Assembly (NCBI GenBank): GCA_045046875.1
Contig: JASFYY010000103.1
Coordinates: 1 to 11,004 of the forward strand
From: Verrucomicrobiota bacterium
GTDB lineage: Bacteria; Verrucomicrobiota; Verrucomicrobiia; Verrucomicrobiales; DEV007
Direction of reading: 5' to 3'
Length of the DNA stretch: 11,004 nt
In this document: positions 6,898 through 11,004 of the stretch, piece after piece
Layout of the letters: each line of letters opens with the position of its first letter
Numbering within the stretch: the stretch's first letter is position 1
Notes under the pieces: generated by a model
What the model was told of the DNA's origin: nothing
What the model saw: only the letters and a program-made list of their open reading frames with translations
Databases searched by the model: none
Program-made: the position numbers and the translations under genes

Positions 6898-8157
6898 TTA
6901 ATTACTGCGGCGCTTGAAGGGGTCATACTCACCGTGTCGGATTAGTGTGACGCCTTGTTTTTTCCAGACTTGACGAATTTCGCTAGCGAGTTGTGGATAG
7001 GTGCGTTGGCGCAGTAAGTGTAACTTTTCGGCTTCAGGGGCAGGAACCCCTTGCCTGATAGCATGAAGATAAGCGGCCAGATGGGCGGCATTGCCTTTGT
7101 CGTCATGGTGAATGAAAAAATGAACCAGCAAAGCCGCACTGTTGTATTCAAGAATGGGGGTGTTGCGTTGTAGGCGGGCGTCCCAGTCGCCGTGTTGACT
7201 GGACATCAAGTCTTCCATTTTCATCATCGGGATGCGTTTAGGGTCTTCGTCAAAGCGCCATTTGTTAAGGTACTGATGCAAGTGCCGGTCGATGGAGGTG
7301 AAACGGTAGCGTCCTTGGGAGTAGGGGGCGGCCCCTATGTATTCGGCAAAACCTTCTTGGAACCATAGCGGTAAATAAGGGAACCAGTCGTGGAGAAGGT
7401 GATGGGTGATTTCGTGTTTCAAGACAAAGGTGTTTTTTATATAATCAGAGCGCGACAAAGTTTTGTCCTTATGGATGCCAAGATTGGTCAGAGACAAAAA
7501 AGTGCGGTTTTTCAGAGGATCGTAAAAACCACCACTGCCTGATGCGGCTCCCGACTGGGCGAAGGATTCACGGTTGTGGTAGAATTGAACCCGCAGCAAA
7601 TCCGGGTCATATTTCAAGGAGGGATACTTATGTTGCCAACGCAGTTGCATCTCGGATGCGGGAGGGCTGGCGGCCAGGCCCAGGGGCAGGCTGTGCAGGG
7701 CGATTCGGGTGGCTTCAAAAACAGTGGCGATGTCAGACACGGCAAATAAAGGCAATTCGATATCAGAGCGCAGTTCGAAATGGGGGCTGCGGTAGATATA
7801 ATCAGAGCTTTGATCATCAGCTGGCATTCGGTGAACTTTGACCGGGCCTTTACCAAGGTTTTGCGGCCATGCGGGCATGGTCTCGGGATCCACCCACGGA
7901 GCTTGTGGATACTGCTTGCGCCAAGTTGCGATGAACTGGCGATCCGCTTCACATAAAAAAGTCAGTGGCAGCACTTTTTTAGAATTGTCTTCCACTCGTA
8001 GAGTTACTCGCAGCCCATCACTGGCCACCAGTTCACCAATGATTTCGCGGCCCTTGATGTCTTTCCAGAAGCGCAGAGGTTCTGTCTCGGAAGCTTGTAA
8101 TGACGTCAGCGAAGTAGCGGCTAACAGCAATAGAACGAATTTCCACCCGGCCATCAT
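6898..8157 (-). CDS. Secreted SHD1-domain, HEXXH (gluzincin/DUF1570-like) zinc metallopeptidase
   Basis: Signal peptide, then an SHD1-like module (RFWKDIKGREIIGELV..VTLR..LPLTFLCEADRQFI). Zinc motif HEITH with a downstream third ligand in PLWFQEGFAEY. The ATG overlaps the upstream stop (ATGA, 8157-8154). Confidence 0.8.
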   Translation of the reverse strand: MMAGWKFVLLLLAATSLTSLQASETEPLRFWKDIKGREIIGELVASDGLRVTLRVEDNSKKVLPLTFLCEADRQFIATWRKQYPQAPWVDPETMPAWPQNLGKGPVKVHRMPADDQSSDYIYRSPHFELRSDIELPLFAVSDIATVFEATRIALHSLPLGLAASPPASEMQLRWQHKYPSLKYDPDLLRVQFYHNRESFAQSGAASGSGGFYDPLKNRTFLSLTNLGIHKDKTLSRSDYIKNTFVLKHEITHHLLHDWFPYLPLWFQEGFAEYIGAAPYSQGRYRFTSIDRHLHQYLNKWRFDEDPKRIPMMKMEDLMSSQHGDWDARLQRNTPILEYNSAALLVHFFIHHDDKGNAAHLAAYLHAIRQGVPAPEAEKLHLLRQRTYPQLASEIRQVWKKQGVTLIRHGEYDPFKRRSN

Positions 8158-9392
8158 AATTTCGGGTAGAAGGTGTAATACACTGTGCCCTCCATTTCTT
8201 CGAAACGCATTCGACGATTGCGGGCTTCCTCGCCCCAGCTCTCGGTGAAAATAATTTCGCCGCGCTTGGAATTATAACCGGTGATCACGGAGGCATGGCT
8301 GAAAGCCTTTTTGTCCGGCCAGGTCGCACGGTCACGGCTGTCCGGCTGGGGCAATAGGGCGCTGGGATCCTGGGCAAAACGGGCGGCAAAGGTGGTGTGC
8401 ACATAATCCCGTTCTTTAGCCCAGCGACGCCAGACAATGATCGGTAATCCGGAATCCAGCACGGCCTGTGCTTTGCGAAAATCAAATTTCGTCGAGCGGG
8501 AGAGGCGCATGTTGGCCTCTCGGCCCGCCGCTTCGTAAACTTCTTTGATTTTTGATCCCTTGGTACTGCCGTAGCGGATGCCGGCGGCCGCGGCATAGTC
8601 CTCGGTATCGAGATTGAGTCCCATGTATTGCATGCTCATTGCCAGCGCCGATACTCCGCAGTAGGCGCGGTCACCCTGTGGGAAAAGGGGGATACTGGCC
8701 AGTCGGCGATCTCCGTTCTCAGCCGTGAATACGTTCTCAGCCAATTGTTTGATCCGGTCGCGACGCTTTAGCTTCACTTTGGCAGGGTCCAGCCAAAGTG
8801 ATTGGGCTTGATTGGCGTCGCGATAAAAAGTGACCTTGACCAATTGCTCGGGAATAGAATAATAGCGCGCGGTTAAATTGCCGGAGGGGAATAACAGAAC
8901 ATTCTGGCGTAGCATGGGAGTCAGGCCGAGGGAGGTCGGGTGCCCTTTAGAGCCGGTCAGTTGTTGCAAACCCTGTTGGACTTTGTTTGAGGTTTCTGTG
9001 TGCAAGGCTTGAAAGCTCTCGCGATTCATTTTTTTTGTCGCGGCGGCTTGCTCCCGGGGTATGTAACCAAAATGAGTGCCCGAGTCTAAAAAAAGCAAGG
9101 TGATCGACTCCAACTTTTGGTCGATGAAGTGGCCTGAAATTTGCTGCGGACGCAAGCCGAAAATAAGAGGTGGTTCAGGCCAGGTTTTATGTGTGATTCT
9201 GGCTATCGCCTTTTGCGGTTGCCACGCGTCGATGAAGTCTTTCTGGTCCCAGATTTCCGGTTTTTTTAGAGCTGAGGGAAGGGGGAAGCCGGTGTCCTTG
9301 GCCTGGATTTGTATTTGCCCAGTCACCAATAGGCTTATGAGCAATGCTGCTCTGGCAAAGAGCCGAGTGATCTGGGAATGGTCGAGATTCAC
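8154..9392 (-). CDS. Secreted papain-fold C39-like cysteine peptidase with N-terminal accessory domain
   Basis: Signal peptide. Catalytic pattern PQGDRAYCGVSALAM (Gln/Cys), SHASVITGYN (His) and FTESWG. The GTG start overlaps the upstream TGA (GTGA, 9392-9389). Confidence 0.8.
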   Translation of the reverse strand: MNLDHSQITRLFARAALLISLLVTGQIQIQAKDTGFPLPSALKKPEIWDQKDFIDAWQPQKAIARITHKTWPEPPLIFGLRPQQISGHFIDQKLESITLLFLDSGTHFGYIPREQAAATKKMNRESFQALHTETSNKVQQGLQQLTGSKGHPTSLGLTPMLRQNVLLFPSGNLTARYYSIPEQLVKVTFYRDANQAQSLWLDPAKVKLKRRDRIKQLAENVFTAENGDRRLASIPLFPQGDRAYCGVSALAMSMQYMGLNLDTEDYAAAAGIRYGSTKGSKIKEVYEAAGREANMRLSRSTKFDFRKAQAVLDSGLPIIVWRRWAKERDYVHTTFAARFAQDPSALLPQPDSRDRATWPDKKAFSHASVITGYNSKRGEIIFTESWGEEARNRRMRFEEMEGTVYYTFYPKL

Positions 9393-9910
9393 CGCGAAGT
9401 TACTGCTGTGGTTTGTGGGCGGATAGTGACGATTACTGCTCCGTTGGCTGATTCCTGAACACGGATGTTGATCTTTTTAAAATTGAAAGATTCCTGATCG
9501 GATTCAGACGTATTGCCGGTGAAGCTTCGAATGTTGGTTATCACTTGATCGACCAGGTTATGGGTTTGCTTGCTGCTTTTTTCAAAAATGATTTTAAAAA
9601 GTGAAATCTTGTCATCTTTGACCTGCGCGGTTATTTGGGAAGCGCTGATACCAAATACTTCGGCATGCATGTTGAGCCGGTATAGTATGACGTGGCTATC
9701 TTTGTTTAACGGATCCTGCCAATCTTGCCAATCACCTGGCAGTTTGGCATTTGCCTTCCAAGTGGAGGTTAAGGCCGCAAAATTTTCAAAACGCATGCCA
9801 GCTGGATTGACAAAGCCGACCCCGCCAATTTGATTGGGGATAGCTTGTAAAGACTTCGGCAATAGAGCCAATGCCAAAGCTATAAATAAGGAAGTCACAT
9901 TATTTTTCAT
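9389..9910 (-). CDS. Secreted hypothetical protein (173 aa), first gene of the peptidase operon
   Basis: The ATG at 9910 gives a clean signal peptide (MKNNVTSLFIALALALLPKSLQA), so it is preferred to the TTG at 9970 from the ORF track. The stop overlaps the next start. Confidence 0.75.
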   Translation of the reverse strand: MKNNVTSLFIALALALLPKSLQAIPNQIGGVGFVNPAGMRFENFAALTSTWKANAKLPGDWQDWQDPLNKDSHVILYRLNMHAEVFGISASQITAQVKDDKISLFKIIFEKSSKQTHNLVDQVITNIRSFTGNTSESDQESFNFKKINIRVQESANGAVIVTIRPQTTAVTSR

Positions 9911-9940
9911 GAACTCGAATAGGAATAGGGTTGCAGGTAC

Positions 9941-9986
9941 AATATGCAGTTGTTGTATGGCCAATGTCAATACTGGATTTTTGACA
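9941..9986 (-). promoter_or_regulatory. Candidate sigma70 promoter for the three-gene operon, within a TGTCAA-N10-TTGACA inverted repeat
   Basis: On the minus strand, TTGACA (9970-9965), 18 nt, then CATATT (9946-9941), about 30 nt before the ATG at 9910. A mirror TTGACA lies on the plus strand at 9981-9986. Confidence 0.4.
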
Positions 9987-10052
9987 AGAGGCAGGAGCTA
10001 GTCGGAGTTTCCCAGCAGGAAAGTGAATTTCCTTGCGCATTGATGAAAATAG

Positions 10053-10080
10053 TTAAAACTGTTCAAATGAACAATTTTAA
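10053..10080. promoter_or_regulatory. Palindromic operator containing a Verrucomicrobia-type LexA (SOS) box TGTTC-N4-GAACA
   Basis: TTAAAACTGTTCA-AA-TGAACAATTTTAA has 12/13 matching arms. The core TGTTC-AAAT-GAACA (10060-10073) matches the described Verrucomicrobia LexA motif exactly. Confidence 0.7.
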
Positions 10081-10216
10081 GTGTAGGATTAAAGGGGGGG
10101 CGAAAGTGATAGCGCAATTCATTATCCATAAGATTCAAGATTTTTTGGCGCACGCCGTCTCCATTTGATTTCGCTTAGACGGCTTATATTCTTGGAAAAA
10201 AGTAACTCAAATTTTC

Positions 10217-10244
10217 TTTACAAGGCCTCGTATCCAGATAAAAT
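10217..10244 (+). promoter_or_regulatory. Candidate cassette promoter (Pc-like)
   Basis: TTTACA (10217-10222), 16 bp, then TAAAAT (10239-10244), pointing at the cassette insertion point about 110 bp downstream. Confidence 0.4.
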
Positions 10245-10296
10245 CGGCTACGAAGTGTAGGAGACGAAGTCTGCCCAGACGGGTTACCTTTGTACC

Positions 10297-10358
10297 TATT
10301 ATACAGACTGCCCGGAATAATATGTTATTCAGGACAGTTCCATATTATACTGTTGGGC
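10297..10358 (+). mobile_element. Putative attI-like recombination site (crossover G|TT at 10352/10353)
   Basis: GTTGGGC (10352-10358) fits GTTRRRY and is the exact reverse complement of the attC R'' GCCCAAC. No attC stem-loop lies upstream. The region has a TATTATAC direct repeat (10297-10304, 10343-10350) and a 14-bp imperfect inverted repeat (10307-10338). Confidence 0.55.
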
Positions 10359-10940
10359 TGAAAAAATATGAAAGAGCAGGAGTTCAGGTTAGCGCTTATG
10401 GCCTATCTGTCCCCGCTTAAAGCAATGACGACCGACGCCCTTCGAACGTTCGTTGCACTGCCGATGCACGCCGATGTTCACTTCGTTGATTTCACGCTGA
10501 TAGCTCAGCAGGATTTTGCTGATCATCTTCCGATTTTCGTATGGGCGACGACCATTTCAAATGAAGTTTATACTGATGTTGGATTATCCACAATCCCGAC
10601 AGACAGATTTCTATGGGCTGACATTGCGGGTGACGAAATGGAGAATGAGGAGTTTGTGATGAAGGACACATTTGCTCGTTGGTTCCACTCGGCCTGGCTC
10701 GATGCAGGTGGGAATCAATACCGAACCCCGGCATTCTTGACGCTTCAGCACGATATTGATACGTTCTGTCTACGTCGTGGGGAATGGGCTGAGTGCGAGG
10801 TGAAATACAAGCCGTGGAATGCCCAACAAAAGTCAGCACCGAATCCCTGAGCCGCCTCGTAGTTATGATTCACTCTAATTTTAACCATCAACCATTTCGC
10901 CCACGCGCGCTCCCACTCAGGGATGCGGTGTGACTCGACG
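10353..10940 (+). mobile_element. Integron gene cassette (588 bp) carrying one ORF
   Basis: Bounded by G|TTGGGC and the attC G|TTGATA. A promoterless ORF starts 15 bp after the left crossover and ends inside attC. Confidence 0.85.
10368..10850 (+). CDS. Cassette-encoded hypothetical protein (160 aa, acidic, Trp-rich)
   Basis: The ORF fills the cassette. C-terminal motif RWFHSAWLDAGG..PAFL..HD..FCLRRGEW. The tail AQQKSAPNP* is encoded by the attC left arm. Confidence 0.8.
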   Translation: MKEQEFRLALMAYLSPLKAMTTDALRTFVALPMHADVHFVDFTLIAQQDFADHLPIFVWATTISNEVYTDVGLSTIPTDRFLWADIAGDEMENEEFVMKDTFARWFHSAWLDAGGNQYRTPAFLTLQHDIDTFCLRRGEWAECEVKYKPWNAQQKSAPNP

Positions 10941-10946
10941 TTGATA
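10821..10946 (+). mobile_element. attC site (126 bp)
   Basis: R'' GCCCAAC (10821-10827), 5 bp, L'' TCAGCACC (10833-10840) ... L' GGTGTGA (10927-10933), 6 bp, R' GTTGATA (10940-10946). L'' equals the reverse complement of L' plus one extra base at position 4. The stem continues with ATCCCTGAG/CTCAGGGAT. Confidence 0.88.
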
Positions 10947-11004
10947 TGGCTGATGATTTGTCAAGTGGGTAAAGTTCTCCTGTCCTATCATTTTGTTGAT
11001 GGGT

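Follow-up and report, generated by a model that had tools for sequence, protein, structure and literature searches.

The window analysed here is the whole of contig C103 (11,004 bp) of a Verrucomicrobiota genome, G000, whose assembly comprises 5.59 Mb in 163 contigs and is 94.7% complete. The relatives of its integrase stem nearly all from Verrucomicrobiota records, and one public run that holds the stretch of the window is a hydrothermal vent metagenome. Related genomes are denoted G001, G002, G004, G005, etc., their contigs by C-numbers, and public runs by X1 to X4. The right part of the window holds the start of a cassette array next to a chromosomal operon, with the following features.

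6898..9910, minus strand: chromosomal three-gene operon for a 173-aa secreted protein, a C39-like peptidase (Peptidase_C39_2, E 1.1e-08) and a HEXXH protein, from the ORFs
9974..9981, plus strand: 8-mer at the approximate left edge of the inserted platform; similarity to empty sites stops near 9975
10033..10060, plus strand: predicted intI promoter TTGCGC-N16-AAAACT, directed at attI, proposed from a layout shared with intI genes
10060..10073, no strand assigned: LexA-type operator TGTTC-N4-GAACA, from a box survey and a matrix; the old intI start codon (ATG 10067) falls inside it
10067..10122, plus strand: old start codon, then about 50 bp whose origin is uncertain; they may be the intI 5' end (not established)
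10123..10158, plus strand: intI remnant with the codons of the catalytic His motif, from alignment to three intI genes
10155..10178, plus strand: intI remnant with the last codons and stop, from alignment to three intI ends
10217..10244, plus strand: predicted cassette promoter Pc, TTTACA-N16-TAAAAT (10/12 consensus match)
10256..10358, plus strand: attI of the reverse-integron class, from identity to intI-linked attI; internal inverted repeat 10307-10338, crossover G/TT at 10352/10353
10353..10940, plus strand: first gene cassette, 588 bp, from matched ends; ORF 10368-10850 (160 aa, no family)
10821..10946, plus strand: attC site, from its bottom-strand fold and the score of an attC model
10941..11004, plus strand: start of a second cassette, stopped by the contig end, from the sequence

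A Rfam search of the integron region gave no family. At the other end of the window, positions 131-176 show a weak match to Rfam Acido-Lenti-1 (30.5 bits, cut-off 37) before a HupE/UreJ-family gene.

Integrase remnants and the LexA-type box

In accordance with the first-pass annotation of this DNA, neither the ORF list nor the family searches hold a tyrosine recombinase in the window. Next to the array, i.e., on C103 and on C43:1-6200 (see below), no intI gene appears as an ORF or as a tblastn trace at E<0.04. A complete integron with an adjacent intI carrying the integron-specific insertion is found on neither stretch; what is seen are remnants. That annotation had proposed an integron that lost intI and kept its cis elements. 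This holds for the loss itself and for the retention of attI, a predicted Pc and a LexA-type box, but not for the classical divergent layout that was assumed along with it. Since intI of the window's clade is directed at attI, the missing gene lay inside 10067-10178. The peptidase operon, which had been put in the intI position, is a chromosomal neighbour, and the intI remnants sit between the box and attI.

Of 80 related intI loci, 20 have attC sites downstream on the strand of intI, and none has them upstream on the opposite strand. The reverse layout, in which intI precedes attI and the cassettes on one strand, is seen in the orientation of the remnants as well as in the intact examples G001:C79 and G002:C269. 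By its layout, the window descends from such a reverse-type (co-oriented) integron.

Two pieces of intI are recognisable. Bases 10123-10158 agree at 29, 26 and 24 of 36 positions with intI of G001, G005 and G000:C117, respectively, and their profile score is reached by 4 of 2000 shuffles; they read IHKIQDFLAHA where intact genes read IRTVQDLLGHA. The gene end (10155-10178) is identical at 17/24 positions to each of three intI ends and reads PSPFDFA* (intact: PSPLDFT*), i.e., the last eight codons survive. Between the two pieces, 59 bp are deleted, and the junction shows a short repeat. The ATG at 10067 has the same register within the box as intact intI starts and shares the reading frame of the His motif. 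For 10067-10122, comparison with five intI 5' ends gave 21/50 for the G001 gene (p 0.018, uncorrected, one of five comparisons) and no signal for the four others. Surviving 5' codons were thus discarded as not significant over five comparisons; a stronger value of 32/70 used a longer stretch and is also one of five. Both a genome-wide profile search and protein searches miss the remnant. By the alignments, intI of the window is reduced to a scar of about 110 bases by internal deletion.

This deletion is not a misassembly, since contigs of three other runs (one study) span box, remnant and Pc: X1 covers 9919-10226 twice, X3 8644-10278 and X4 10107-10354. Run X1 holds two alleles, one of them with 33 differences plus 7 gap letters in about 310 bp, and both have the deletion. 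In X2, cover is missing at 10053-10139, a stretch that includes part of the remnant.

With regard to the box, a perfect TGTTC-N4-GAACA had been reported about 280 bp upstream of the crossover; it is found at 10060-10073, 279 bp before it, and is one of 5 exact sites in the 5.59 Mb genome. Further exact sites are found in front of the C117 intI and of genes for a Y-family polymerase, a RhuM-family protein and a helix-hairpin-helix protein. Allowing for at most one mismatch, the box stands at the start of 28/40 related 5'-complete intI genes (control: 0/40). In a matrix from 36 intI-linked boxes, the window's site ranks first in G000 (21.6 bits); a weaker matrix site is located at lexA, and near-matches precede lexA and recA. 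We take TGTTC-N4-GAACA to be the published LexA motif of Verrucomicrobia; our literature search found no text with this motif. The box is predicted to belong to intI as a host-type LexA operator overlapping its promoter. By eye, the layout TTG..N..AAnACT before the box also occurs at the intI genes of C117, G001 and G024; the promoter scan did not pick up the predicted intI promoter of the window. Regulation of the peptidase operon by the box was rejected, given that the operon promoter is conserved in G001 and G002, which have no box there.

Of 16 integrase-less heads checked, only one other, G001:C115, has a box. The box is therefore not a general feature of lone heads. At a locus of its own, G001:C115 repeats the layout of the window (box, 5' codons reading GSDWQRY, Pc, attI), which we read as having arisen independently of the window's architecture. 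At the intI starts of L060, L071 and L215 and at lexA (G000:C124:12640), the operator overlaps the start codon, with a predicted -10 located 6 nt before. This placement of operator and -10 suggests that intI and lexA transcripts are leaderless.

attI, cassettes and insertion site

The structured non-attC site that had been noted to the left of the cassette (hairpin z -3.06) is an attI homolog. Aligned to intI-linked attI, 10160-10357 matches C117:20262-20458 with 89% over 199 bp; there, an intI end leads into attI and into cassettes of equal orientation, i.e., a reverse layout. Within 10205-10354, 141, 141 and 139 of 150 positions are identical to the intI-linked attI of G000:C117, G005:C187 and G001:C79, and 107/150 of this Pc-attI block to a fourth intI-linked copy. 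At the sequence level, the window has an attI with a GTT crossover, and the core columns are 0.92 conserved among 22 attI copies.

The hexamer pair facing the cassette is likewise present as described, with the 10/12 match listed above. Since 5 such sites were found where 2.5 are expected, the scan alone proves little. Among the 22 attI copies, both hexamers are conserved at 0.73 compared to 0.57 for the spacer, which is a modest contrast.

The matched cassette ends are all in place (GTTGGGC at 10352, GCCCAAC at 10821, unit of 588 bp), and so is the canonical attC: 10821-10946 folds on the bottom strand with z -3.51, and 1/200 shuffles is as good. With an attC model derived from 16 sites in other genomes, the five closest relatives being left out, the site scores 65.7 bits over its full length (E 5.7e-14). 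The R''/L''/L'/R' boxes and the bottom-strand hairpin are present, with L'' one base longer than L'. The attC family has 49 matches on 17 contigs of G000.

The locus had been described as carrying a single cassette. This appearance is due to the contig end: a second cassette starts at 10941 and the contig stops 64 bp on, i.e., 58 bp past the attC. On C43 of G000, about 5.2 kb of cassettes in the expected orientation precede the polysaccharide deacetylase gene, and C43:1-6200 holds 6 further attC sites at E<0.001. Given this gene order, the window most likely holds the first part of an array that counts at least ten cassettes, is inserted between operon and deacetylase gene and continues on C43; C103 and C43 are joined by synteny only. 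No terminator-like site is found in 9850-11004.

The 160-aa cassette protein has no Pfam or NCBIfam match, one homolog and a DUF6389-like lead only. An 88% identical protein in G001 is encoded by a cassette at another locus, with a different attC. On G001:C23 (L074:5208-5290), the window's cassette gene adjoins a sulfatase gene at a site with the attI core only.

With regard to the insertion site, the operon directly adjoins the polysaccharide deacetylase gene in G001 and G002, without box or attI; that is, the operon has no integron beside it in 2/2 relatives with assembled flank. The 8-mer of the left edge recurs at C43:5256, the far end of the array, and once in the empty site of G001; absent from the G002 empty site, it is a possible, unproven target duplication. 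In G005, the head is unassembled beyond the box, which has 1 mismatch there, and no continuation of it was found. The G005 array at this locus has one 799-bp block of 4,650 bp in common with G000. This sole shared block (L259:612-1183 = G000:C43; L233:2006-2792) is a two-ORF cassette, which presumably resembles a toxin-antitoxin pair, a type that we assume to resist loss.

attI heads and integrases across genomes

G000 holds ten attI sites in three classes: the window's attI occurs in six copies, the second class at C12, C135 and C142, and the third once, at C11. There are two intI genes, of which that on C117 has two stops and that on C27 runs into a contig end; no intact intI is assembled in G000. 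Given ten attI sites versus one broken and one partly assembled intI, the sites are likely loaded by an enzyme encoded elsewhere.

We also screened the family with an attI model that uses sequence only and was built from 22 copies, which match by construction. It finds 52 places in 11/134 genomes, including 5/5 congeners. Nine of them have intI or a piece of it upstream and 43 are without detectable intI, where 3 of the 43 have less than 1.6 kb of upstream sequence. Five of the lone matches have no recognisable core, and several copies in G004 lack the GTT. The core of the first cassette equals the first attC exactly at 10/14 testable lone sites and at 5/6 intI-linked ones, compared to 10/380 in a cross-site null. 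The nearest attI copy is in the same lineage for 37/43, a value reached in 0/2000 permutations (G000 and G005 pooled; 5 matches without core and 4 from other genomes left out). The attI loci mostly differ between species. An exact 20-mer scan of metagenome contigs gave 2 matches, one a similar attI with cassettes and one unrelated.

Across the phylum, 31/41 full-span intI genes are intact, and 22 loci with 5'-truncated intI tails were examined. IntI-mediated excision as their source was rejected, with a GWT at the junction in 2/22 cases for a background of 0.20. We also dismissed a transposon-like end of the heads, since the sharp boundary common to C12, C135 and C142 turned out to be a dispersed hairpin repeat without specificity for integrons. 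This 25-bp repeat has 28 matches in G000 at up to 3 mismatches, with compensating stem changes among these places; we assume it to be REP-like.

Some further arrangements were observed. C12, C135 and C142 (first 600 bp) and C11 (about 61500-61620) hold integrase-less heads of two other, classical integron classes, and the former three have a common 530-bp module bounded by the hairpin repeat, which is also found past the C27 intI stop. On G000:C128 (L031, L036), tandem attI copies bracket four attC cassettes and one ORF, and the second attI stops the contig at GTT. C26 and C57 both begin with an apparent 3' end of a group II intron, as we take these contig starts to be, inserted in attC.

Signs of activity come from close relatives and from public runs. 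At the trxA locus, the heads of G000 and G005 are integrase-less and 91-94% identical including the flank, with no cassette in common; the difference starts at the crossover. G000 arrays have gaps, i.e., shared cassettes may be missed. The attI of the trxA locus is absent in 4/4 other congeners. The reverse intI genes of G000 and G005 show 48 synonymous and 27 non-synonymous differences (dN/dS 0.145) and have different lesions; therefore, intI was probably working after the G000/G005 split, and an enzyme was probably available in trans after it.

Four contigs stop exactly at the attI crossover. In X1, X2 and X3, the first cassette has a depth of 5.5, 6.4 and 4.4 for a flank of about 28, 27 and 13, i.e., roughly a fifth to a third, where contig depth is a weak measure and does not give the share of cells. 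The first cassette is missing from X4, and the cassette contigs of X1-X3 match from the crossover G onwards.

Reading of the locus and relation to known systems

On balance, we think that the window holds an eroded reverse integron head, one of several that probably still receive cassettes from a distant integrase. Service in trans had been suggested beforehand, and is plausible in view of the many heads, the matched cassette ends and the differing arrays. We propose the following course. The whole platform would have been copied to, or acquired at, the window's locus in the G000/G005 lineage. Subsequently, intI would have been eroded by deletions, with attI and Pc kept by selection or homogenised. 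Under SOS, IntI from elsewhere would recombine attC sites with the window's attI; its source may have been C117-type until recently and is now perhaps C27-type or that of another strain. Pc would then express the first cassettes, and the old intI promoter, located about 290 bp from the crossover, might add DNA-damage-inducible transcription of the array.

The alternative that survives best is that of frozen relics, i.e., the heads are old integrons that died with their own intI, and the arrays differ due to RecA-type attC exchange or horizontal segment replacement. The missing intact intI in the G000 assembly and the decay of some lone attI copies fit this idea, as do the co-occurrence of two head alleles in run X1, which implies homologous exchange at the head, and the commonness of integrase pseudogenes, some from duplication within a genome (PMC2426708). 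On the other hand, attI/Pc is 93-94% identical to intI-linked copies and the adjoining remnants only 67-81%. Exact core matches at lone sites and a change at the trxA head that affects the first cassette itself, from the crossover on, also argue against relics, which we consider unlikely.

A chimera is far less probable still. Here, an attI module with an intI tail would have landed by an unrelated LexA-controlled promoter, and the box would never have been that of this intI. The 50 bp past the start codon are indeed not clearly intI, and none of the 22 loci with 5'-truncated tails has a box (at most one mismatch) upstream. Against this stand the ATG register and reading frame, the clear 5' codons in the same layout of G001:C115, the absence of both box and attI from the empty sites, and the 40 bp upstream, which resemble the C117 intI promoter (21/40, p 0.007 uncorrected, 1 of 5 comparisons). 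Insertion of the cassette at a secondary site of the genome (attG), or a collapse of intI during assembly, would agree with the contig end so close to the attC and with IntegronFinder-style rules, which would call a single attC without integrase, but is hardly credible given a left site that is a full attI with Pc instead of a GWT triplet and single contigs from other samples that span box, remnant and Pc.

Beyond the window, we tentatively propose, at somewhat less than even chances, a distributed integron in verrucomicrobial chromosomes: Pc-attI heads would multiply within a lineage, shed intI and stay selected, all of them loaded in trans by one SOS-controlled integrase, and a spared operator, as in the window and in G001:C115, would become a damage-inducible cassette promoter. 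If true, many CALINs would be live satellite platforms with unrecognised attI heads, neither debris nor off-target insertions.

As in reverse integrons such as those of Treponema denticola (PMC4909258, PMC4889954), intI was co-oriented with the array, upstream of attI and Pc, and the cassettes carry attC. Differences to Treponema denticola are an intI of about 110 bp, a verrucomicrobial clade with a 470-aa IntI and many heads per chromosome. CALIN and SALIN denote attC sites without recognisable intI nearby; the papers on them treat them as headless, such that Pc cannot express them (PMC4889954; 10.1101/2022.09.11.507474). The window shares the lack of a recognisable intI near its attC. In contrast to CALIN and SALIN, it keeps attI and a predicted Pc, and its remnant is too short for protein-profile searches. 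A difference from a plain CALIN had been suggested on account of a seemingly retained attI, Pc and SOS operator; this is borne out by homology for attI, and Pc and operator are predicted. The window would act like an integron platform yet be filed as SALIN or CALIN.

Loss of intI is among the CALIN origins considered by Cury 2016 (PMC4889954), where pseudogenes lie near only 15/279 CALINs and 95% are without a recognisable one. For SALIN, Loot et al. (bioRxiv 10.1101/2022.09.11.507474) proposed attG insertion; for the window we rejected it, as the left site is a true attI homolog. Mobilisation of CALIN cassettes in trans has been stated by Ghaly 2022 and in a Xanthomonas preprint (10.1101/2025.06.18.660453). 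CALIN origin and activity are open, since most have no intI pseudogene and attI is unsearchable in most clades (PMC4889954, PMC9024848). In the window, an intact attI adjoins a remnant that escapes profile searches by its small size. The relatives range in steps from an intact intI to its absence and have a searchable clade-specific attI. Therefore, the idea of one integrase and many docking sites is directly testable.

Nemergut 2008 (PMC2426708) described pseudo-integrases, some from duplication within a genome, and a Xanthomonas pathovar holds an integrase-less array that is frozen (10.1101/2025.06.18.660453). The inactivation or deletion of intI is common to pseudo-integrons (PMC2426708) and the window. 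Unlike here, these studies count intI without tracking attI (PMC2426708; 10.1101/2025.06.18.660453), and the arrays considered here differ between close relatives. Our search found no paper on several integrase-less attI/Pc heads per chromosome; most subscription journals were outside its range, and relatives of these genomes may appear in the tables of integrons by Cury 2016 and Cambray 2011.

Cambray 2011 (PMC3108266) found only E. coli-type boxes at intI promoters and concluded that control is lost where LexA reads another motif. As there, the window's operator overlaps the predicted intI promoter; unlike there, intI of this clade carries a host-type palindrome in 28/40 genes. Such intI genes with a putative non-E. 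coli LexA operator run counter to that conclusion, and loss of intI in a reverse layout could place cassettes under SOS control.

Finally, an ATG-started ORF ends at the crossover in 33/61 verrucomicrobial attI regions compared to 10/61 shuffled ones (L080-L156). These ORFs mostly comprise 31-32 codons, ranging from -103 to -4 or -7 relative to the crossover. They resemble ORF-11 and ORF-17 of attI1 (PMC8876359) and may couple translation to the first cassette. In the window (10250-10352), the frame has ACG in place of the ATG and is without a stop.
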